From Squalus acanthias (taxonomy: Eukaryota): a stretch of 64,000 nucleotides of DNA. The stretch lies in NCBI GenBank assembly GCA_030390025.1, contig JASTWF010001061.1, forward strand, positions 62,001 through 126,000, in the 5' to 3' direction. The position numbers were made by a program, and so were the translations under genes. A model generated the notes under the pieces. That model did not search any database and was not told the DNA's origin. It saw nothing but the letters and a program-made list of their open reading frames with translations. Shown piece by piece: positions 13,731-64,000 of the stretch. Each line of letters begins with the position of its first letter. The stretch's first letter is position 1.

Positions 13731-14640
13731 TTAATTTAATTTTATTAACTTAATCATCTGAGCAAATGGATATTTAATCGCATTCTTTAACGCATCTCTG
13801 AATTTAGTCTGGGCCACTGCATAAATAACCGTGTTGGTGCAGGAACTCAAACGCTGGAGCATATATCCGCTGTGTTCCATGACGGTAAAAGGATCTGCGT
13901 AATCTGTTCGGAAGAAATGAGTATCTGTAATTTGTATACATATTTCATAGAGGAAATTTACCACCCATAGCAGGATAAAACTGCCTGAAATTGCGAGCAA
14001 TAAGATGACGGATTTCCTTCGGTTCTCCATCTCTGGATCATTGTGACTCTCGCCCTTCTTGCTCCCTCGGAGTCTCCTTCTGACTCTACTGGCCTGTACA
14101 ATGAACCTGATGGTCAGAGCATTGAGCAGTACAATGAACACGAATGGAGCGAGTGGGGTTAAAATAATTTGGAGCCAGAGATAAGCCATCCAAATGGGAA
14201 AGGTGTAGAAGGTAGATTTTACAGCACAGAACCATTGTATGTTATCAATTATTTCACCAGCTTCACTTACAAAGTAAAATGGAATGTTTTGTAAAAGGCT
14301 CAAACCACACACCGTTGTTATAATCACAGTCGCAGTTTTTTCGGTGCAATATTTGACTCTCAGTTTCGGGTAAGAAATGGCGATGAATCGATCAAAGGTG
14401 AAGGCGACGGTTAACCAGACAGAACAATCAGTGGCAGAAAATGCCAGGCTGAGATTGAGACAGCAGATGAGAGTATAGTCCAGGAATGAATTTGGGAAAT
14501 AAATCTCTTTAATCTGATACAGAATTACATCAAATATCAGGACCAGTAGATCTGCTGCTGCCATGGCCACCAGGTATCGAGTGATGCATTTGGCGAGACC
14601 GCACTTTCCACGGAGAGAATCACAATTGTGAATAAATTCG
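13731..14640 (-). CDS. GPR139/GPR142-like class A GPCR, exon 2 (end of TM1 to C-terminus), with a 1-nt deletion near 14610
   Basis: Acceptor ttttattgcag ends at 14641. Motifs MAAADLL (TM2), SVWLTVAFTFDRF (TM3), DPEMENRRKS and LSSCTNTVIY (TM7). There are 68 nt between the phase-1 start and the 14570 ORF where 69 are needed: attctctcc-gtggaaag lacks one C relative to ILSRGKCGL. Confidence 0.88.
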
Positions 14641-15344
14641 CTGCAATAAAAGAGGAAAAAATTAATTAATCATCATAGTCAAAACAAAATGGCCGGCAGG
14701 TAATGACAGTTTATCAAATTTCAGCACATATTTTCTACTGCTCAACTCATGCTCTCTCTCTCTGACTCTCTCTGTATTTCTATATCTGTCACTGATTCTG
14801 ACCATCCCTCAGTTTTACTCACAATCTGCCTTTCTCCTGCCTCTCTCTCTATGTCTCAGTTTGTTTCTGTGACGCTCTAATCATCTCTCTCTGTCTCTGT
14901 TTCTCTTTAGCTGGGAGTTTTCTATCAGGGTATTTTAGGCCAGAATGGCTATGAGGGAGCGTTTAATGTACAGTATTAACCAGAAGTGCGCTCTTAACAC
15001 CCAGGTCTACTCACTAGCACAGCTTGAGCTGCAAATTGGGACGGGTTTTGGAAAAGGAAAAGGGGTAGAATTCAAATACAAGGGATGGGAACATTAAAAG
15101 GGGGTGTCAGAAGAGGGGTGAGGGATTCTGAGATTCTTTGGAGAGTCTCAGAAGGCATCTCAACCCGTTATCCATCTTGGCCAAGGTGAAGGAATAGTGG
15201 ACTAAGAAGAAACAGGCAACTATGTAAAGAAAGGAAGCCCGAGGTTCAGGCATAAGTTGGCAGACCGCGAGACGTGGCAATAGGAAGAGAACAATAAATC
15301 AATGGGTCAAGCACAGTTACCTATACTGTGTATATTTTAATTGA

Positions 15345-15665
15345 TTCCCGGGCTGTGGGCATCGCTGGCATTTATTGCCCATCCCTAGTTGCCCTCAGTA
15401 ACTTGCTAGACCACTTCAGAGGGCAGTGGGTGACGGACTGGAGTCATGTATAGGCCAGACGGGTAAGGACGGCAGGTTCCTTCTCTAAAGGATATTAGTG
15501 AATCAGTTGGCTCTTTATGATACCTGGTCAATTTATGAATGCTCCATTTATTTTTATTTCCAGGTATTTTTTAACTGAATTCACACATTCTCGATCAGCC
15601 ATGGTGGATTTGAACTCACGATTTTTAGAACATTGGTCCATGTCTCTGGATTCTTAGTCCAGGAG
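15345..15665 (-). mobile_element. SINE-like element carrying the family B LINE 3' tail
   Basis: Tail catttattgcccatccctagttgccct matches the family B 3' end. B-box-like gagttcaaatcc on the minus strand near 15606-15617. Confidence 0.6.
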
Positions 15666-16319
15666 CAAAACCAAAGTCCTTTGAAGTAAATGGAAAAATA
15701 ATCCAGCGAGTTTTCAAACAAGCTGTCAGCTCGCGAGCCCCGGTTTTACACCTGGCGAGCAGAGTTCAGTTTACCCTCTGTCTCTCTGACTTTCCTTTTC
15801 TGTCTCTTTTCTTTAAACTATTTTTATATTTCTGACTCTGTCGCTCTCTATTTCTCTCTCTCTCTCTCTCCCTGCCAGTTTCTTCTGTTCTGACTCTGTG
15901 GGTGAAATTTGTATCGGACGGTAGCGCAAAACTGGCGATAGTGAATTGGCAGCACATTCAGACCGTGCCCGAAATACTTTACTTTTTATTTCAATGGGAA
16001 AAAAATTGTGCGCGGAGTAAAACAGGTTCGGATTCGCTATGAGCCGGTCTCGAGCTGCTGCCGAAGACCTATTCCACCCCCAGTACTGCGAGACTGTGGT
16101 GAAAGTTGTTAAAATTGTTGGTGCTGAAACTGCAGAGACAATTGTAGCTTCCCTGGGAATTTCTGTGACGTTATTGCGTTAAGGTTTCAGTAGAAGTTCG
16201 TGACATTTCATTGATCTCAGTAGAAACAAGCCCGTGAAAACAAACAGCTCACAGAATCAACTAGAGCAGTGATACAGGTAAACCCCGAGTGACATTGACA
16301 ACTGATGGTAATGACTTAC

Positions 16320-16389
16320 CAGGAACACCAAACACTGCGAGAATCGGGTAGTAAACCGCTTCAATCTGGGCAAGGATTGGTCGATCCAT
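16320..16389 (-). CDS. GPCR exon 1 (MDRPILAQIEAVYYPILAVFGVP)
   Basis: ATG at 16389, 70 nt, phase-1 donor G|gtaagt. It joins exon 2 to give the TM1 motif GVPANLFTIVILS. Confidence 0.88.
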
Positions 16390-31460: not shown

Positions 31461-32615
31461 GCACCACGTGAAGATAAGTGTTCCATGTTGTAGTTAGTGA
31501 CGGGCCCAAAGCGTCCTTTACATAATTCAAGAAAGCTAACTCTCAGATAATGTTTCAATTTCATGGATTTATTTTCTTATTAGTAACCAGAATGATTTCA
31601 AATAACCAACAGCTTTATATCTCCATGTCTGTTACTCACTATCACCGAATTGAAATGTACGGTTTGGAGAATGTTTCTTTTGTTTTAGGGGTGGGGATGA
31701 ATTATTTTTCCCTCCTATACCGGAGGCAGTGACTCACTGTGGACTGCACAGGAACCAACTGACATCGGATAGAACACCTTTCAGTCTGAGTTTCATGGGG
31801 GAGCCCAGACACTGAGTCTTGGTTTGCTGGTAAAGTTCCTCTCCCGCACGGGGGTCGCACTGGCCATTTATGATGTGACTGGAAGGACTCTTCATACTTG
31901 TATTGAGCAAGGAAATCCCGTCCTTACTTCCTGGCCTCGCACGGTGCCCAGATCGGCAGGTTTAAAGATTAAAACACAGTCGGGGGCGGGAGGAGGGAGA
32001 AAGGTGTTAGATATACCTGTGGACTTTTGAGTTTTCCAGTGAATGAAGTACCCCTTTAAATAATATTAAATCCACCTTCCGTAATTGGTACAATGCGGCC
32101 AAGTTAACAACAAACTTTAATAATACCAAATTTCCTTTAAAATCGGAAATCAAACATTGAGATCAGCCAGGGGGTCATTTAAACCGATCAAAATATCACA
32201 TCTGTTGAACACCGTTATCGAGTCCCAGAAACTTTTCCAAACACTGCCTTTATTTTATGTACATATCTGCGCGCCTCCAATTCTGGCCTCTTGCGCTCCC
32301 CCGATAGAGTAATGGCGGATCCAATAGTTTCCCAATGTTGCCTTCCAATTTCCTGGATCCGCTGGAGTTTCCAAGTATTCTATTTTAGCAAAACAGAGTC
32401 TGAAAGTACAGAAAGAAAGCGGAAGAAAGTAAATTCACCATTTAGAATACCATTGTCATTTCCGACTTGCACTTAAAGTCACTCTGTATACACAATGGAT
32501 GTAATGGAGCTGGGCTCGGAATGGTCGATTCCGTGATCCGACTGTGTAACATGTTGTGGATGCTTTAAGCAATGTGCTCTGTGCTATATTTGTTGTCGCT
32601 TGCGGTTTATGTGCA

Positions 32616-32664
32616 GGGACTTTCTGCTAACACTGCTAGTCTCTGAGTGACAGAAAACGAAACT
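32616..32664. promoter_or_regulatory. kB-like site plus consensus ISRE
   Basis: GGGACTTTCT at 32616-32625 (9/10 match to GGGACTTTCC) and GAAAACGAAACT at 32653-32664. Confidence 0.4.
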
Positions 32665-33300: not shown

Positions 33301-34222
33301 TGCTTGTCCGAAATCCATACGATATTTGTGATCGAGTATTTTTGTGTGAGGAATGGGGTGGTGTGAAAGAGAACGATTAGAAACACTCACGGGGGACCCA
33401 CGTTCAAAACACAACTCGAAGAATGGGAATTTCAGATCAGTCTGTTAAGGGGTCATACTGCCCCACAGGTTGATTTCATATCAGTGTGTTATGGGGTCAC
33501 ACCGCCCCACAGGGTGATTTCATATCAGTCTGTTAAGGCTACTTTCAAGACTGCAGTATAAAATTTTAAAGTAAGTCAGAAGACACAGATTTAGGTTAAT
33601 GGCTTGGTAATTGAAAACAAATATTAGGAGCAACTTTCCTCAAGGATGATAAAAGCTACGATGAATTCCTCAGTAGGAAAGCATGGTGTTCCCAATGAAG
33701 TTCCAATCTACTGGGACAGTCCTAACCCCGGAGGGATGAGTTGCAATGGGCCCAATGGCCTTTTCTTGTAGAGAAAATGTAAACTATGTTTTATCACAAT
33801 AAAGATTTGTCACTGGTCGTCCAGGTTTCTTCAATATTAGTTCAGGAAACATCATTGAGAAAAACCTGGCAAAATGTAAAGAAAAACATTCCCCGCTCAC
33901 TGATCGCTACATTTGTATGCTGGGAAATTAGGCCTAGTTAACAATCCCAGATTGAACCGTCGCCATCCAACTCAAAGACAAAGCTTCTGAAAGAGGATGA
34001 GGCCTTCAGGTAGACAGTTTGAGGAAGGCATTAAAAGATGCAAAAGACCATTTACTGGATATAATTAATGATTGTATTGTAAAATATAATCGTTGACGTT
34101 TTAAAATGTAATCTCTTATTGTGGACAATAGAACGTTCAGACAACAGCGATTGGGAAAAAAACCCACACAAAGATGTTTGAGTGATTTGTGGGAACCCGT
34201 GGCCAGATTTCATAATTTCAAA

Positions 34223-34372
34223 NNNNNNNNNNNNNNNNNNNNNNNNNNNNNNNNNNNNNNNNNNNNNNNNNNNNNNNNNNNNNNNNNNNNNNNNNNNNNN
34301 NNNNNNNNNNNNNNNNNNNNNNNNNNNNNNNNNNNNNNNNNNNNNNNNNNNNNNNNNNNNNNNNNNNNNNNN
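34223..34372. other. Assembly gap
   Basis: Run of 150 N. Confidence 1.
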
Positions 34373-34520: not shown

Positions 34521-34780
34521 ATTCTCACTCTTTGATGCATCACTACACAGTGAACCATGGGAGTTCTCATCTTCCGGACTATAGTAAAATGGAGATTGTG
34601 GATGGCTGTGAGATAGACTATTGTGACAGCAATATGTGCATAACGGTTCCAAGGAATCAGTGGATGGTGACTTTCTGTGACACCAGTTACTGTGAGGAAC
34701 TCACAATTACTCTAGCCAGTTTCCACGGAGTCAGAAAGGGCAAGTTTCCAGAACGTTACAACAGATGAACCTCAGTTCAA
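34521..34780 (+). pseudogene. Orphan MHC class I alpha1 exon, paralogous to 45214-45474, with a 1-nt deletion
   Basis: ttctag acceptor and gtaagt donor. Encodes (D)SHSLMHHYTVNHG...DGCEIDY...ITVPRNQWM. It is 260 nt versus 261 nt for the intact copy; the frameshift near 34748 gives TGA at 34766-34768. About 51/87 identities by manual count after restoring the frame. Confidence 0.88.
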
Positions 34781-40148: not shown

Positions 40149-40320
40149 GGGGCAATTTGAACCTTAGTGGCTGGGCGGGATCCCACGCTGCTTTCCCGCT
40201 CCCGCACAATATTACTCTCCACTGATTTCAATGGAGAATAAAATTGGGCGCGGGGTAAAACCAGTGTTGCCCCCGATCCCGACAGTTGTTCGGCCGGGCG
40301 GGTTAGGTTAAAATAGCCCC
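40149..40320. mobile_element. Short palindromic MITE-like element, representative of a ~140-220 bp family
   Basis: TIRs ggggcaatttgaacct / aggttaaaatagcccc and a central ccactgatttcaatgg. Relatives at ~45511-45690, 45713-45888, 49911-50096, 51756-51974, 52611-52754, 54261-54399, 59472-59629, 60398-60576 and 60581-60973. Confidence 0.7.
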
Positions 40321-40562
40321 ACGGGGTCAGGAAGGGTTTAATTGCCGTGATATGAACTTCGGCGGTTCACTGTATTGAGGTTCAACAAGCTGAATAGTTT
40401 ATCACTCGACTCTCTGCGGCAACGAGGGCGTTTCCCGCTAGATTCAGACAATATATTAATTGTTATCAATTATACAACTTAACCCCCGGAGCGCTGTTTT
40501 AAACATATTTCTAACCGCCCGCCGTGTATTGTCCATGGCCACATGGCGCAGGCCTTGGACTG

Positions 40563-40636
40563 TGAGTCAGTTTCGGTGCTGCTCACGGTTCAGGGACAGC
40601 CCTGGACAATCAGTGACGGATCTTTACTGCGATTGG
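40563..40636 (+). promoter_or_regulatory. MHC class I-type promoter module A (AP-1, ISRE-like half site, X1/X2-like, Y box)
   Basis: TGAGTCA 40563-40569, AGTTTC 40569-40574, cctggacaatcagTGACG 40601-40618, and ATTGG 40632-40636, 121 nt before ATG 40753. CpG-rich context. Confidence 0.6.
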
Positions 40637-40752
40637 ATGGTGAGCTCCCGGACTGCCCACTTGTGAGTGAAGCTGGGCTCGGTTCCATTCAAATCGCTCA
40701 ATCTTGTTCTGTCACTGGGAGAGACGGCAGGTTGGCGGACGGAAGGGACGGC

Positions 40753-40804
40753 ATGTTTCTGTCACTTGTACTGAGTTTCTTCCGCCTACAAGCGGCCCTG
40801 TCTG
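40753..40804 (+). CDS. Candidate MHC class I leader exon A (MFLSLVLSFFRLQAALS)
   Basis: 52 nt, hydrophobic signal-peptide-like, phase-1 donor G|gtgagt in frame with the a1 exon. Confidence 0.72.
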
Positions 40805-42867
40805 GTGAGTAGCCGGTTCGGGATGCATCCTTGAATGTCTCCAGGCTCACCCTCTGATCTTAGACTGTAACCGGCAGGCCTGTCGGTCACATCAGGTGTT
40901 TCACACAGGGAAACTAGTCAGTGTGTGCGGAAGTGAAGCGATGAAGCGGGATTGGTATCTCCATCTTGCTTCTCAGGCTCGCTGATCCCTTTGCTTGGAT
41001 TAGATGATGTCCATTACTGTCCGGACAGCCTGACATTACCGCTCAGTTACTGTGACAGCTTGTATGTTCGCTCTGATAAGCAGGAGGGGGACGGACAGTT
41101 TGTTCCCGCTAAGCGGCTTGCGGGTACGGAAGTGTCAGTATAACTGCGAGCCCAGTCCCGACTTGACCCCCTGAGTGACCCAGATCCCAGCGGCGAGACT
41201 CCTGTAGGAAAGCGGCTCAGTCGGTTTGGGTTCACACCTGTTTCAGTGTAACTCCAGCCGGCGGGAAGCTGCATTTTAAAAGCTTCTTTCTACCTCCTGG
41301 GAACTTGGAAAACCTTTTAAAACTCCCAATAAATCGGACAAATCATTAAAAATACAGAGGGAGGGGTTCACTTTTATCACAGGGGGAAACGGGTTCCAGC
41401 GACCCGGGAACCTCTTTTACACTTTCCGACTCGCTTTAGAATGAAGCTTTGAGGCGATCCGTGCAGGTCCGGGTGAAGATTGAGCTCCCAGAGTTAACCT
41501 CTCTGTCTCTTTCACACTGACCTGCTGCATATTTGCAACATTTGCAGTTTGTAGCGGATTCCCACCATGTGCGGTTCCATTCAGGCTCATGTTGACTCTG
41601 TGCGATGGTGTAACGAGGGCGAGAGCAGTCGACCGCCAGTTTTCCATCTTTCTCTCCGTTTCCCCCTTCTATTGAGTTCAATGGCAGTAACAATCTGGAG
41701 AGCTGTAAAAGGGGCTGCCGACTGGCTATCGCCCGTTTTACTATCGTACAAAGTCAAGATCGAGCCCACTGACTGTTGGAATTGATCAGTGCCTGCTGCT
41801 CACAGCCTGGAGCTGTTCGGGGTGAACATCAGAGGCAGCTTTCGGCACCTGTTACAGCTGCTGCGGAAGAAAGAGAGAACGAAAGACTTGCCTTTCTACA
41901 GCGCCTTTCACCAACTCAGGACATCAGGTGGAAGCCGATTTAACAGAAACTTTGAAAATGGAATTGGACAAATAATTAAAGGGAAAACAAAAATACAGGG
42001 CTCTGGAGAAAGAGCAGGTGAATGGGACTGATTGGCTCGTTATACCAAAGAGCCGACACAGGCACAATGGGCCGAATGGCCTCCTTCTGTGCTATATTAT
42101 TCCATGATTGGATGGAGTTAAAATACAGATCAGCCATGACCTAATTGAATGGCAGTAAAAGTCTCGAGGGGATGAATGGCCTCCTCCTGTTCCTAAATTA
42201 ATGTTGGTGATATTAGAGGTGAAACGCTTACCATATTGGTGTAACATTACTTTGCCTGTTATTTTAATGGTGTAGCCTGCTTAAAACAAGTGTGATATCA
42301 CCTGTGTTACAGCAATGGACAGTAACATGTCTCAGTAATATTGCCAACAGTAATTTTAGGCAGAACATGTATGGCGGTACAGCGAGTAATAAGGCTCAAT
42401 GAACAAGTGTATTTGTATCTTGGTCTGAAATTCCTCTTTCCACTATTTTAGCAGAGCCTCAATCTGTTCAAAGCAGATAGGCTTACACCGCCACTGAAAC
42501 GGAGGAGTGTTGAATTTTCAGATTGTGTAGCTTGTAAACTTTCTATCACCCAGCAGAAACACTGAAAGTGACCAGCCTGTGATTGGCCTTTCATTGACCT
42601 TAACAAGGCGAGGCTGTATTTGCCAGTGAGATTTGCACCTCTTCTGATAAGGTGCAAACACAGGATTGGAGATTGCTGCTGCTTTTAACAGCCAGCTCTA
42701 TAATCGCTAACGATCAGGTTCAGTGGGTAATATTATCGCCGATGCCTTCAATTTGTGTCCCAGTCTTCCTCCAGTTTCAAGTCTTTGCCATTGACCAGTG
42801 TGTTATTTTCTAATCCAATTCTGCCCGCAGTTCCTAATGTTGGGAATAGAGCCAGAGATTCCCTCCC

Positions 42868-42915
42868 CAGTGACGGGAGGTGAGTTCATTCCCATTGGAT
42901 AGAATGAGTTTCACT
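42868..42915 (+). promoter_or_regulatory. MHC class I-type promoter module B (X2/CRE, Y box, ISRE-like)
   Basis: cagTGACG 42868-42875, cccATTGG with ATTGG at 42894-42898 (118 nt before ATG 43012), and AGTTTCACT 42907-42915. Confidence 0.6.
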
Positions 42916-43011
42916 AAACGAGATAAGTAGAATAATGTGGGAGAGGTTCGGGCAACGACATAACTTTCCCGTTTCGCTGTGCAGGGTTTTCACTGAGTGA
43001 CTCCCTGAAAC

Positions 43012-43063
43012 ATGTTCCTCTTTGCTTTAGTGAGCCTTTACTTTTTTCAAAGGGTGGTTCCTG
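43012..43063 (+). CDS. Candidate MHC class I leader exon B (MFLFALVSLYFFQRVVP)
   Basis: 52 nt, hydrophobic, phase-1 donor G|gtaagt. Joining to a1 gives ...VVP-ESHSL. Confidence 0.78.
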
Positions 43064-43139
43064 GTAAGTCAAATGACAGGAGTTGTGCGGCTATATTCAT
43101 TATTGCACTAGACCGCCATCATGAACAAAGTATTTGACC

Positions 43140-43352
43140 CGGGTTTAGTCCGGGATACACCGACTGCCCCCGTGTTTAGTCCGGGTTATACTGCCTGTTC
43201 CGTAATTAGTCCGGGTTACACTGACTGCCCCGTGTTTCGTCCGGGATACAATGACTGCCCCGATGTTTAGTCCGGGTTACACTGACTGCCCTCTTGTTTA
43301 GTCCGGGTTACACTGACTGCCCCCGTGTTTAGTCCGGGTTACACTAACTGCC
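43140..43352. repeat. ~30-32 bp tandem repeat, 7 units (gtgtttagtccgggttacactgactgcccc)
   Basis: Visible directly, starting ~75 nt into the intron after leader B. Confidence 0.95.
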
Positions 43353-45213
43353 TCGGACCTTGCGGATGCCCTGGGGGAGCTCCTGTGTTGGTTGAAATGG
43401 TGAGGTGACGATAGGGCCTCGTGTGGCGTTGGACGGTTAAGAAACACGCCAGAGAGTTACTGCAGGACTGAAGTAATGTCCCTCAATCATAGAGGGGAAT
43501 TTGTGCGGTGATTCAGGCCGACGTGTTGGCAACGTTGGTTGGACTCATTCCAGGAGCTTTCATCACATGACCTCCAGCCCAGTCAAGCCGCCTTCTGTCC
43601 CCAGCTCTAATATTATTGTAATTGTGATTGTTGTGCTGTTGTTGTTATCTTTCTCTCTAGTTTCTTGCAGCGGTGTCCAGGAGATTAATATTTAATTCCT
43701 GGAGACTGCGGGATAGTTCTGGAGGGTTGGTAAACCTATGCTCCGCCTGTCTGATAGATTAAGTTGGTGGGGACAGTATCATTTCATGATCCGGCTTCAT
43801 TTACATGAAATGAGCGCCAAGACCTTTTGATTTAAAGGCTGCCTGCAGTCCCTTAAAGGGACGGTGCACTTTTCAAGGGTGGTTAATGGAGAGCGACTTA
43901 CTGGAGCAGCAGCTTTCATGACATGGTCAGGTGTCCTCCGATTCTCTGGGCAACGGTGGAGGCGCTTGAAGAGCAAGTTAGCACTGGTACTGAGGACCTC
44001 GACTCCTCTAATAGGTAATGATAGGCCCGTCAAATTAGTCAGCTGTAATGGCGAGAGGTGGATGAGCAAGTTAATTGCAGCAACATTGGGTATAAAGTGC
44101 ATGGTAACCGACAGCGGCTGATGGAGATCGACAGCCTGTTTTGGCTATCGTCCAATTTTCTTTTCCAAAGACTTCAATCGAGTAGAAATTCAGGCGGCGG
44201 GCAAAGCTGGCTGCTGATTCGCTGTCGCCCATTCCGCGCTGCCACCCAAGACAAATTTATATTCCATTTTCCCAAGGATCTAGCTGCATTGCAGGAGGAA
44301 ACGTAATGACCTCACCAGGACTGACAAGGTCAGACTCGGCTTCACGTCTTTCTTACTATCTGCACAGCCTCGCACCGCCTGAAGTTAGCCGCTGCTCTAC
44401 TAATCCTTCCCTTCAGACTTCCCATGGCTCTCCTCCAATCACAACTGACACTCCACTACATTCCAGAGTGAAATTACGAGAAGTCCATTAACAGTTCAAA
44501 ATATTCAGCAGCCAGTACAAGAAATTTAAATAGATTAAGTAGTGAAATCCTACAACAAAATAGAAGTAAAATGTCTCCTAAATATTCCAGCATTTTATTT
44601 CAGACCAACTGAGGATCCCTGTAATATCTGCCTCCCGAGTGGTTCCAGTGTGTCGGCAGGATCAGGAACTAGCGGTAACAATGTGGGCAGAGAGGGAAAT
44701 ATTGCTGAGGGCCCTGATAACCTCCTTTAACCGCAATTTGCATATATTCAAGCTGCTTTTCCCCCTCTTTCGCTCAGTAAATCTGAGGCCAATTTTAATG
44801 TCGCTACAAGCAGCGGGCTGGGAGTAGATCACTGCGCACGCACTAGGGGTGGATTCTGCACGGCTTAGTACCATAATTCTGGATGCACTTCCTCACTAAT
44901 TCACCAAAGAATCCCCAGGTCAGACGTGGGACTAAAATCTTAAAGTTACGATTTACAAATGAGATGAGCTGATGTAATTTATTCGAACCATCACATTTTT
45001 CATTTATTTGGAAAATGGGAATATTCTTGTAAATGGATAACATTAAATATTAAGGCTCATTTTGTCTTCTCTGCAATGGTTTAATACGGGAGCGATGGCA
45101 AAATATCCAGTGATCTCTCATTTTTCGAAATAAATTATTTTTCCGAAGTTGTTTTGCAAACGGATATTTCTGATATTTGATATGCCAATTATGTTTTTTT
45201 TATTATATCCTAG

Positions 45214-45474
45214 AGTCTCACTCTCTGTTATATTACTACACCCTGAACCATGGGATTGCTGATCTGCCGGAGTACAGTGTTATGAGGCTTTTGGATGGCT
45301 GTGAGATAGACTATTACGACAAAAATATGAAAATAACTGTTCCAAGACAGCAATGGATGGCGGAAGCATTTGACAAAAGCTACTATGACGAATACACAAG
45401 CACTCTAGCTGGTTTCCACGGACTCATCAAGGGACCGGTTGATAGATGGTTGCAGCAGAACAATCAAACATCAA
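45214..45474 (+). CDS. MHC class I-like heavy chain, alpha1 exon
   Basis: cctag acceptor, A|gtgagt donor, 261 nt. Encodes ESHSLLYYYT...LPEY...DG.EIDYYD...PRQQWM...NQT (N86 sequon). Confidence 0.95.
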
Positions 45475-46043
45475 GTGAGTGTATTCGTTTGAATGAATGC
45501 AGCGAACGACAGGGTTCATTTAAACTTGGGGGATAGTGTAACATGAGTGATATCGAACCGCCTGATATACACCCGCCTGATTTTCCCTTCCATTGACTTC
45601 AGTGGAAGGGAACATTAGGCGAGGTGTATAATGGACAACTAATTGGATATCAGCCATTTTACACCATCTCTGGAAGGTAACATTAACCCCAATGAATGAA
45701 ATTGGTCATACAGGGGGCGAAATTCAGTATCGGTGTGTGTAAAATGGCAGTAGCAGCGAGGCCACCCTTTATACATGCTGATTGATTTTCCTTCCCATTC
45801 CCTTCACAGTAAAATGGGCCGGGTCTATAACAGGCGGCTTTTCCGCTCCCACCCGTTCAGCAACCCTGCTAAAGTTGAATTTCACTTTCATAACATGATA
45901 AAATACGGTCGCCTGTAAATCAGCTGTTGTTTTACACCGCGATCGATAAATAAAATGAGATGTGGTTTAAAACGGGCAAAATATGGGCGCCTGTGAATCA
46001 GCTGTTGTTTTACAGCTTATCGATTTTCTGAAAATCGGACATG

Positions 46044-46984: not shown

Positions 46985-48205
46985 TGATGTGGAGATGCCG
47001 GCGTTGGACTGGGGTGGACAAAAATGAGAAGTCGCACAACACCAGGTTATAGTCCAACAGATTTATTTAATTTTACAAGCTTATGGAGCGGTTCGCTCCT
47101 TCCTCAGGTAGGGTAGCAGTGAGAGAATCTCCCAGAATTCACAACATAGACATAGACAAAATCTATTCAAATCTTTCCCTACATCAAAGACACACTAAGA
47201 GCACAGCCAAGACAATGAGATGTGTCCCAGGGGGTCCAACGTGTCAAAACACCTGCTGGCTGCATATCCTGTCAATTTGTGTTGGTTCTTGTGTTAGTCT
47301 TCGTTAGTCAACATGTCATCGATGACGACAAACACCTTGCTAAGGCCATCCCCACGCCTCCACTACTCGCCTTCAAGCAGCCGCCTAACCTCAAAAGTAC
47401 CATCGTTCGCAGCAGATTACGCATCTTTCAGGAGAACAGCAACGACGACACCACACAACCCTGCCACGGAAACCTCTGCAAGACATGCCAAATCATGGAC
47501 ACAGATAACATCATCACACGTGAGGACACTACCCACCAGGTACACGGTACATACTCATGTGACTCGGCCAACGTTGTCTACCTGATACGTTGCAGTAAAG
47601 GATGCTCCAGAGCATGGTACATCGGCGAGACCATGTAGACACTGAGACAACGTATGAACGGACACCGCGCAACAATCGCCAGGCAGGAGGGTTGCCTCCC
47701 AGTCGGGGAACACTTCAGCAGCCAGGGGCATTCAGCCTCGGATCTGCGGGTAAGCGTTCTCCAAGGCGGCCTTCGGGATGCACGACAGCGCAAAATCATC
47801 GAGCAGAAACTGATAGCCAAGTTCCGCACTCATGAGGATGGCCTCAATCGCGATATCGGGTTCATGTCACGATACAGAACGTGACTTGACATCATGGCCG
47901 GTCTTTCCAGGTGTTTTTTTTTTAAAAAGACTAACACAAGAACCAACACAAATTGACAGGATATGCAGCCAGCAGGTGTTTTGACACGTTGGACCCCCTG
48001 GGACACATCTCATTGTCTTGGCTGTGCTCTTAGTGTGTCTTTGATGTAGGGAAAGATTTGAATAGATTTTGTCTATGTCTATATTGTGAATTCTGGGAGA
48101 TTCTCTCACTGCTACCCTACCTGAGGAAGGAGCGAACCGCTCCGAAAGCTTGTAAAATTAAATAAATCTGTTGGACTATAACCTGGTGTTGTGCGACTTC
48201 TCATT
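46985..48205 (+). mobile_element. 5'-truncated Penelope-like element: GIY-YIG endonuclease between inverted terminal repeats
   Basis: 47302-47884 encodes QPPNL...CKTC...NVVYLIRC...WYIGETM*TLRQRMNGH...VGEHF...EQKLI...GLN, with one TAG at 47636-47638. ~279-bp inverted repeats at 47023-47301 and 47927-48205. Duplication cattaataaaata at 46972-46984 and 48202-48214. Confidence 0.93.
48118..48154 (+). ncRNA. Minimal type I hammerhead ribozyme with an intact core
   Basis: tac-CTGAGGA-a-GGAGCG-aac-CGCTCC-GAAA-gc-tt-gta. Palindromic AAGCTT at stem III. Confidence 0.8.
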
Positions 48206-52316: not shown

Positions 52317-52592
52317 GTATTCACTACATTCAAGGACTGTTTGGCTGTGAGCTGAATGATGCCAATCCTAGTGTAGGGGTGTTGAAATTCGCTTATGATG
52401 GAAGATACTCATTTAGTTTCGATAAAGACAAATTGGATTGGACTGTACATGATCCAATAGCTCAGACCTTCAAAGTGAAATGGGATAAGGAAACAAAGAT
52501 GAATCTTTATTTCAAGAGCTTATTAGAAAATGACTGTGTGGATGTATGGAGAATATACTATTCAATTGGAAATGCTTCACTAAACAGACAAG
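52317..52592 (+). CDS. MHC class I-like heavy chain, alpha2 exon
   Basis: ttctag acceptor, G|gtaagt donor, 276 nt. Encodes IHYIQGLFGCEL...AYDG...KVKWD...LENDCV, with the C101-C164 pair. Confidence 0.95.
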
Positions 52593-52820: not shown

Positions 52821-53087
52821 TTTCCCCTGAGGTCTCAGTTATTGCCAGGGCTGCTGATCGTTGGTTTCTCCACTGCATTGTGACGGGATTTTATCCACAG
52901 TCCATCAGCGTGACCTGGTTGAAGAATGGAGAACATGCCCCTGAGACCAAATCTACTGGGCTATTACCCAATCACGATGGGACGTATCAACTAACGACAA
53001 CCCTTGAATTTGATCCGTATGATGGGAAACAATACTCCTGTCATATTGAGCACAGCAGCTTGCCGGGTGGGAAAACAGTCTCCTGGG
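52821..53087 (+). CDS. MHC class I-like heavy chain, alpha3 (C1-set Ig) exon
   Basis: atgtag acceptor, G|gtaagg donor, 267 nt. Encodes VSPEVSV...LHCIVTGFYPQSISVTW...LPNHDGTYQ...YSCHIEHSSL...W. Confidence 0.96.
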
Positions 53088-56718: not shown

Positions 56719-56825
56719 AAGGAAAAGTAGAGAAAGTCAAGCATGTGGGGCTGATTGTCGTGTGTGTACTGGTGTCGCTGGCTATCGTTATAGTTTTAAT
56801 CTATATGTGGAGGAAAAAAACAGAG
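56719..56825 (+). CDS. MHC class I-like connecting peptide/transmembrane exon
   Basis: tttttcag acceptor in phase 1. Encodes EGKVEKVKHVGLIVVCVLVSLAIVIVLIYMWRKKTE, then a GAG|gtaagg donor, or read-through to TGA at 56868-56870. Confidence 0.85.
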
Positions 56826-62160: not shown

Positions 62161-63128
62161 TAAGTGCAATTGCTTTACTACTGAAACAACTCAATTTGCA
62201 TAAACATTTCACCCCGACTTATGTTCAGTCACTTAATTCAAATATTACTAACTTGTTTAACTTTGAAGGCACATTGTCAAATCTCATCTGCATTTGCACA
62301 AACTGGCGTTTTAGACATTACGTAACGGCCGCACTGAATAATGGCACGCCAGGGATTTAAAATTTTGTTTTGTTAATATTTATACCTTCCTAATTAGTAC
62401 AATTGACTCCGACATTGGCCTCAGGTAGACAGTCTCCATCTGTGAGCAGAAACAGTGACTGCAAACACTGTTCAATTACTGGAAACACAGCCGCGCCCGA
62501 TCCTGTCCACACACTCACATTTCACCAGCAGCATCGCCAACACAGTTGTCCGGAGCAAATCCCGAGGCCACTTCTCCCTCTGTAACTGAAGGGAGCGAGG
62601 CCAGTGTAGTACTCTGCTGCTAACCCTGTGGTTACAATGAGGATGAGAATAAGACGAATTTTCTAGCACCGGTGGCCAATCTGCAACATCGATTTTCAGG
62701 CTCCAGCGACAACGTGAAAATCTTCGCCAGAGAGTCAAGTTGAAAGTTAAAATGTCACACAAATGCAAAAAGGGAAAATTTTCCAGGGAACTTTCTACTT
62801 CGGCGTGGAGTAAAATGGGGAGAATTGGATCGTCTGTTGTCTATAAACGCCGCTCGAATCTCCTTCCATTGACCTCGCTCCCGCCAGAGGTGAAAGTTCC
62901 ACCGACCAGGGGTGAAATTCACCTTCAGGTACGGCGCAAAAATAGCGGGAGCAGGTCGGACGCTCATTACACTCCCGCGCGACTTTCATCTCTATTAAAC
63001 TCTACCGAAAGCACATGGTGTTGGGCGAATAACAAGCGGCTGATCGGCTGCTGCCCGTGTTGAATAAATAAGATGGAAGCGAGTCTCAATTCTTTGTAGT
63101 CAGCTCTGGTTAGACTCAGACCTTCTAA

Positions 63129-64000
63129 TTATTTCCCTAACTTAGTAATTACAGACAAGGGATATTGAATCAGATTCTTTAACTCCACTCTGAATTTAGT
63201 CTGGGACACTGCATAAATGATGGTATTTGTGCAAGGACTCATATTCTGCAGCATATATCCAGTTTGTTCCAAAATGTTGAACGGATTACTGCAGTCTGTG
63301 TGCAAGTATTGAATATCCATAATTTGTACAGATATATAATAAATTAAACTTACCATCTATAACAGGATAAAACTGCCAGATATGGCCAGCAGTAAAACGA
63401 TGGATTTCCTGCGGTTGTTCATTTCTGGGTCACTGTCGATTCTCCGGAGATCCCTCCTGATTCTACTTTTCAGTAGAAATTGCCTGATGGTCAGACCATT
63501 GAATATCAAAAACAAAAGAAAAGGAATAAAAGGGATTTAAACTATGTCAAGCCATAAGAATATAACCTTATATGTACAGTATAGAGTTTTGAGTTCAGTT
63601 CACAGAACTACGGTATATTGTCAATTATTGCGCGAGGTACTAAAATAAAGTACATTGGGAAATTTTCAAAAATGCTCAGCCCCGATATCGTTGCTACAAC
63701 CACTGCCGCAGTTTTTTCGGTGCAATATTGAGTTCTTATTTTTTTGGCAGACAAATGGCGACAAATCGATCAAAGGTGAAAGCGACAGTTAATCAGAGAG
63801 AACATTCAATAGAAGCATAAATAAGGAAGACATTCTGACTGCAGACCGGAGTGTATGTCCATGAATGAATCCGGGAAATAAATTGCTTTCATCTCATACA
63901 GACCCCGCCAAATATCAGGACCGCAGATCGGCCAATGCCATGGCCACCAGGTAAATAGTGAATTACATGGAGTGGCCGCGTTTTCCCCGGAAGAGGAATC
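63129..64000 (-). pseudogene. GPR139/GPR142-like GPCR pseudogene (exon 2), continuing beyond the window
   Basis: YLVAMALADL, LTVAFTFDRF, DPEMNNRRKS and CTNTIIYAVSQTKFR are homologous to 13731-14640. In-frame stops at 63963-63965 and 63357-63359, plus several frameshifts. Confidence 0.9.

Follow-up and report, generated by a model that had tools for sequence, protein, structure and literature searches.

Two leader exons with X2/Y-like promoter motifs upstream of a single UGA-lineage MHC class I gene in Squalus acanthias

Alternative signal peptides made from twin promoters are already known from the IgLON genes Lsamp, Ntm, and Opcml, in which promoters 1a and 1b are described as giving alternative first exons, and with them alternative signal peptides, on one gene body (PMC5288359). 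Among MHC class I genes, HLA-C is reported to have a second, upstream, NK-specific promoter that tunes expression together with alternative 5' splicing (PMC5785035); as far as that account describes them, its extra exons are 5'-UTR variants of a gene with a single coding leader. Many nonclassical class I genes are reported to be without the MHC SXY module (PMC11695323). Two coding leaders in one class I gene are without precedent in the open-access literature that we searched, which held no report of such a gene and nothing on the promoters of UGA.

This work describes a UGA locus of this kind, found in a 64-kb stretch of Squalus acanthias DNA (the window). It comprises a distal promoter-like cassette with a leader exon (P1 and L1), a second such unit (P2 and L2), and one gene body. 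With the IgLON genes it shares two separate signal-peptide-encoding first exons before a single body, and by that analogy it is a candidate twin-promoter gene. Both IgLON promoters are active, with tissue differences, whereas at the UGA locus only the splicing of L1 has been seen, and that in relatives; the gene families are unrelated. The likeness to HLA-C is that of a class I gene with a putative second promoter, but here a whole X2/Y-like promoter is duplicated together with its own coding leader. As in the MHC SXY module described for other genes (PMC3987962, PMC4374748, PMC4381081), both cassettes have TGACG followed by an inverted CCAAT less than 200 nt from the ATG, although the published X-Y distance of 20 to 22 bp is counted between other motif edges than our 13 and 18 nt (PMC4374748).

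The UGA gene and its body

By its sequence, the gene is an intact nonclassical MHC class I (class Ib) gene of the elasmobranch UGA lineage. Its alpha1 exon matches PDB entry 9CH4 chain A at 142 bits (the next chain gives an E value of 3.5e-10 and 43 bits), and the alpha1 domain of 9CH4 is, in a comparison by eye, the nurse-shark sequence labeled UGA in supplementary file 10 of PMC10751288. The match and the label together therefore place the gene in the UGA lineage, which refines a preliminary description of this DNA that had recognized an MHC class I gene and named no lineage. The body consists of the following exons:

45214..45474, + strand: alpha1 exon of UGA (E 4.5e-41 to PDB 9CH4 chain A)
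52317..52592, + strand: alpha2 exon (Pfam MHC_I, E 2.2e-14; splice sites)
52821..53087, + strand: alpha3 exon (Pfam C1-set, E 2e-20)
56719..56825, + strand: connecting peptide/transmembrane (TM) exon (matches homologues)
62398..62406, + strand: tentative, candidate last coding exon, Tyr-Asn-stop (acceptor scan; homologues end Tyr-Asn-x-Val)

The exon layout is that of elasmobranch UGA, and the reading frame is intact, free of stops, from leader through alpha1, alpha2, alpha3, and TM. Identity of alpha1 to 13 shark and ray homologues ranges from 61 to 83%. Over the mature part, identity is 85.4% and 83.5% to two Pristiophorus copies, 80.9% to Heterodontus, and 79.8% to Heptranchias. In a tree built without a non-UGA outgroup, the window gene groups with sharks against batoid UGA (support 100/100).

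The tail of most UGA homologues reads Tyr-x-x-hydrophobic (YNIV, YNTV, YSVV, or YQTI), a pattern that resembles the endosomal sorting signal of CD1; the Tyr-Asn-stop of the tentative last exon would cut this motif. UGA has been described as CD1-like and lipid-binding, in a statement given as a personal communication in a review (PMC12562908). The locus is flanked by two GPR139-like receptor genes on the − strand, of which the left one (13731 to 16389) is apparently intact, with two exons, and the right one (63129 to 64000) carries several stops and frameshifts. Leucoraja UGA likewise has a GPR139-like neighbor, and the Leucoraja RefSeq model XP_055521880 fuses the two genes as a read-through. 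Within the alpha1-alpha2 intron, positions 47023 to 48205 hold 279-nt inverted repeats (99% alike) around a GIY-YIG-like coding stretch, a fragment that we take to be of Penelope type.

Leader exons, promoter cassettes, and splicing

The two upstream units contain the following features:

40611..40619, + strand: P1 X2/site-alpha-like element (TGACG at −139; function suggested by consensus only)
40632..40636, + strand: P1 Y-box-like inverted CCAAT (at −121; 13 nt after TGACG)
40753..40804, + strand: leader exon L1, ancestral UGA type (15/17 to two Pristiophorus leaders, 13/17 to Heterodontus)
42868..42876, + strand: P2 X2/site-alpha-like element (TGACG at −141)
42894..42898, + strand: P2 Y-box-like inverted CCAAT (at −118; 18 nt after TGACG)
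42964..42984, + strand: candidate splice acceptor, maybe chance (27 nt before the L2 ATG; pyrimidine fraction 0.78)
43012..43063, + strand: leader exon L2, Heptranchias type, intact, Pro at −1 (12/17 to the XP_067834249/50 leader)

The preliminary description had reported two ATG-initiated exons of 52 nt, both in frame with alpha1 and with no alpha1 exon between the cassettes. All of its coordinates hold, and tblastn likewise gives no alpha1 in the interval. L1 ends in CTG/GTGAGT and L2 in CTG/GTAAGT, both in phase 1 with consensus donors, and each leader reads stop-free through alpha1-alpha2-alpha3-TM. Both encode a leader of signal-peptide type (hydrophobic cores of 2.45 for L1 and 2.77 for L2). 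Candidate leaders were defined as stop-free segments of 17 codons plus 1 nt followed by GT, on both strands of the window. Among the 3045 such segments, scored against 21 UGA leaders, L1 and L2 ranked first and second (scores of 48 and 21, the next being 12), and the L2 score was reached by 2 of 2000 shuffles. These two top ranks therefore mark both exons as true UGA leader homologues.

Other candidates did not hold up. A possible third leader at 32572 to 32626 was rejected, as it has no GT donor and its score is reached by 309 of 2000 and 107 of 1000 shuffles. A search for short fragments of leader plus alpha1 gave one candidate and no matches, and a 50% representative protein search, as judged from its hit table, added no UGA leader to the set. 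Two observations concern the surroundings of the exons: a 31-bp minisatellite of seven copies (43138..43352, + strand) starts 75 nt behind the L2 donor, and the 7 codons before the L1 ATG (40732 to 40752) look like the N-terminal extension that galeomorph UGA leaders carry (MAGG...), with TTG here in place of their first ATG.

With regard to the promoters, CAGTGACGG is present only twice on the + strand of the window, at 40611 and 42868, and in both cassettes X2 (TGACG) precedes Y (ATTGG) upstream of the ATG. Recomputed positions agree with those first described, i.e., ATTGG at 121 and 118 nt before the two ATGs and gaps of 13 versus 18 nt between TGACG and ATTGG. The motif pair stands at the cassette offsets before 2 of 2123 ATGs, namely those of L1 and L2, a count that is partly circular, as the offsets were taken from the cassettes. 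The bare pair shows no enrichment across the window (2 occurrences against 0.88 expected, and 22 of 100 shuffles reach this number), and the 320-nt cassettes align with each other no better than shuffles do (576 of 1000). The case therefore rests on position and on the peptides. Strict matches to ISRE, NF-kB, GAS, and TATA were sought within 500 nt of either ATG, and none was present. This holds for the ISRE and enhancer A (NF-kB) that stand upstream of SXY in classical class I genes, for which a 3-nt-spaced variant at −47 of P2 is the only trace. An interferon test, as proposed in the preliminary description, is thus without sequence support. X-Y spacing is described as critical in mammalian MHC promoters (PMC4374748, PMC4381081), and the 5-nt difference between the cassettes amounts to half a helical turn, so it is a reasonable inference by analogy that P1 and P2 may use co-activators differently.

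Splicing was followed in sequencing runs of related organisms. Thirteen such runs matched, none recorded as RNA, and 4 were aligned at 85% likeness to positions 40300 to 45700; these come from relatives, are only guessed to be RNA, and bear no tissue label. A joint 40803>45213 with GT..AG ends, which connects L1 to alpha1 and skips L2, is present in 2 of the 4 runs, from two studies and two organisms, at a depth of 11.8 in run X2 (organism A) and 66.7 in run X5 (organism B). L1 is thereby shown to be a used first coding exon in relatives. Because run X2 contains two alpha1 variants, its joint is not tied to one copy. The preliminary description had proposed to look for two junctions; the one from L1 to alpha1 is thus found in the relatives' runs, and the one from L2 to alpha1 is absent among the 15 of 21 joints listed (from 4 of the 13 runs), as is a joint from L1 to 42985. 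Since contigs drop rare forms, the tissues are unlabeled, and 15 of the 21 joints are listed, these data say nothing against L2. The P2/L2 region is present in organism A on two contigs, with 12 differences in 171 nt and 21 in 181 and no indel listed within the exon; organism B has no cover there. Two low-depth contigs of run X1 over P2/L2, one upstream of the Y box and one running through the L2 donor, are unspliced and may be pre-mRNA or DNA.

Age, history, and use of the second leader

Homologous N-termini were aligned, one per distinct gene or species with a readable leader, models without a recognizable leader being excluded. Of the 23 sequences obtained, 21 carry a leader of L1 type, from Pristiophorus and Heterodontus through skates and rays, and every L1 residue occurs among them. 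L1 therefore represents the ancestral UGA leader. The leader of both Heptranchias RefSeq isoforms (XP_067834249/50), as annotated in the RefSeq model, agrees with L2 at 12 of 17 positions and with L1 at 9 of 17. It shares with L2 the residues A5, F12, and R14, each found in none of the 21 others, and both lack L16, which is otherwise invariant. This likeness marks L2 as a leader paralogue of long standing, with its orthologue in a different order of sharks, rather than a recent local copy. The preliminary description had named an unconserved second cassette as the sign of a relic, and the persistence of the L2 type in Heptranchias speaks otherwise. What the two cassettes have in common is limited to motif positions, exon length, and 28 of 52 identical nucleotides in the leader exon, as expected of an old duplicate.

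Two further points emerged from the RefSeq models. In none of the 17 RefSeq UGA clusters listed is a single gene shown with two leader exons that are homologous. The annotated N-terminus of Stegostoma XP_059495376/7, the last of the 23 aligned sequences, ends in Val-Ser-Pro and was considered as L2-like and dropped, being random relative to UGA leaders (993 of 2000 shuffles); it is probably an intron read-through and likely an annotation error.

L2 has not stayed unchanged. It differs from the Heptranchias leader at 5 positions, 4 of them polarizable, and L2 is derived in all 4 (binomial p 0.06). Heptranchias keeps the common residue in each case, i.e., L7 (21 of 21 reference leaders), F9 (19/21), R11 (12/21), and S17 (6/21). 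One of the derived changes is Ser to Pro at −1; Pro stands at the leader end in 1 of the 21 reference leaders. The −3/−1 residues are Ala/Ser in L1, Val/Ser in Heptranchias, and Val/Pro in L2, which ends in Val-Val-Pro. Pro at −1 violates the (−3,−1) signal cleavage rule and disfavors cleavage at the usual site. These derived changes, that to Pro included, therefore suggest relaxed selection on L2, an asymmetry suggested by four residues at p 0.06, and they call into question whether both leaders would yield the same mature protein. On the other side, a rough neutral model with assumed rates gives a chance that all L2 features survive of 53% at 0.03 changes per site, 12% at about 0.1, and 4% at 0.15. 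With neutral survival of the ATG, frame, length, donor, and both motifs this low, a long-standing inactivity of L2 appears unlikely, and L2 may be properly used.

The explanation that we favor, and consider modestly probable, is an old duplicated first-exon unit in which L1 works and L2 is minor or decaying in this lineage, and Heptranchias apparently uses the L2 type. On this account, the UGA promoter-plus-leader unit would have been duplicated before the split from the Heptranchias lineage, and both copies would have been kept before a single alpha1-alpha2-alpha3-TM body. Distal P1/L1 would be the working start in this lineage and carry the main expression, with transcripts presumably beginning downstream of the P1 X2/Y pair and L1 spliced across 4.4 kb, past L2, onto alpha1, as seen in relatives. 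P2/L2 would be an intact second start under relaxed selection, serving as a first exon to a minor extent or in certain tissues, or else persisting as a spare that slowly decays. If L2 is used, Pro at −1 probably shifts or weakens cleavage by signal peptidase, which would alter the amount of the protein or its N-terminus. As an L2-type leader is annotated in Heptranchias, shark lineages seem to favor different copies.

How the second unit arose is a related question. One possible history, if short of a probable one, is that L1-type and L2-type UGA paralogues once stood in tandem, the body of one was deleted, and the orphaned promoter and leader came to splice to the body that remained. This scenario concerns history and is compatible with the use of either leader. 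The window contains debris of the kind expected from a birth-and-death array:

33793..33825, − strand: inverted 33-nt copy of the P1 X2 region (27/33 identical; blastn E 0.003; 0/200 shuffles)
34521..34780, + strand: pseudo-alpha1 exon of a dead UGA paralogue, with a 1-nt deletion (frameshift) and intact splice sites (73% nt identity to alpha1; tblastn)

The pseudo-alpha1, which lies 6 kb upstream, differs from alpha1 at 18, 15, and 21 sites in the three codon positions and has no alpha2 or alpha3 of its own in the window. Neither this exon nor the Pro at −1 of L2 figured in the preliminary description. The inverted fragment sits about 700 nt upstream of the pseudo-alpha1, with an N gap (34223 to 34372) between them. 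From the dead alpha1 and the inverted piece of P1, we conclude that the locus has been duplicated and rearranged. UGA is also multicopy elsewhere, with 3 copies in Pristiophorus, 3 in Pristis, and many in Rhinoraja. Trees were built from 23 rows, from 15 rows (8 near-redundant or long ones excluded), and from 18 alpha1 rows, and none of the three resolves the earliest splits among the shark UGA sequences. One tree puts Heptranchias UGA on the first branch to leave the other sharks (86/87), where an old paralogue would be expected to lie. The alpha1-only tree, however, joins Heptranchias to Pristiophorus (80/82), although a grouping of the window gene with Heptranchias is not rejected by the AU test (p-AU 0.218). 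A simple deletion would moreover predict a body of Heptranchias type, but the body is nearer to that of Pristiophorus, which has the L1-type leader (85.4% and 83.5% versus 79.8%). At AU p values of 0.22 and 0.15, the trees do not separate a duplication of the leader unit alone from a whole-gene duplication followed by deletion.

The model of the preliminary description, in which two active and differently regulated first exons lead to one and the same mature UGA by way of different signal peptides, we regard as rather unlikely. Both units are intact, with motifs at near-equal distances from their ATGs; the orthologue of L2 is an annotated leader in Heptranchias; it is improbable that all L2 features would survive together under neutrality over long times; and the mammalian requirement for X-Y spacing gives a difference in regulation some footing. 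Against these points stand the four derived changes on L2, including Pro at −1, versus none in Heptranchias, and the lack of strict ISRE, NF-kB, or GAS sites near either ATG. P2 also lies in DNA of background CpG content (observed/expected 0.50, versus 0.51 for the window), whereas P1 is richer (0.79). What stands of that model is the pair of genuine leader homologues, both with an undamaged ATG, frame, and donor, one of which, L1, is spliced in relatives; the claim of an identical mature protein is doubtful given the Pro at −1. A bolder version, which we would call clearly unlikely, is that the two X2/Y cassettes have been kept since early shark evolution with gaps half a helical turn apart, one open to RFX/CREB/NF-Y co-activators and the other not; the two would serve in different cells, with L2 altering signal cleavage or trafficking as well.

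It is very unlikely that L2 is instead an internal cassette exon of 79 nt (42985 to 43063) in a P1 transcript, where it would shift the L1 frame and damp expression. The pyrimidine-rich CAG acceptor, placed 27 nt upstream of the L2 start codon, would permit it, a product of L1, the 79 nt, and alpha1 would stop at codon 44, and HLA-C is described as being tuned by untranslatable splice forms from its upstream promoter (PMC5785035). A stretch of 130 nt is nevertheless expected to hold about 0.13 such acceptors by chance (0.126), and 42985 to 43063 is skipped in the contigs where L1 is joined to alpha1. A consensus donor in the X2-Y spacer of P2, taken with the same acceptor, delimits a possible 105-nt intron (42880 to 42984), maybe also by chance, whose removal would eliminate both upstream ATGs (42904 and 42935).

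That L2 resembles a leader by chance or is an artifact of assembly (a collapsed or doubled haplotype), as the unenriched motif pairs and the poor alignment of the cassettes might suggest, is largely refuted and barely credible, given its second rank among 3045 segments and its 12/17 match to a real leader, the freedom from N gaps between 34372 and 54976, a leader identity (28/52 nt) far too low for alleles, and the presence of both regions in organism A.

Implications for UGA and MHC evolution

UGA is a little-studied, CD1-like class I lineage of the oldest jawed vertebrates. If L2 is merely decaying, as our favored explanation allows, the second unit would be a minor side product of gene turnover by birth and death in the MHC, and its chief use would lie in annotating such genes correctly. 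If P1 and P2 form a true X2/Y pair with different spacing on one gene, the locus would offer an internal control in sharks for the spacing rule of mammalian MHC promoters. Different leader copies, apparently used across shark orders, would constitute a clean case of the sorting of duplicated first exons.
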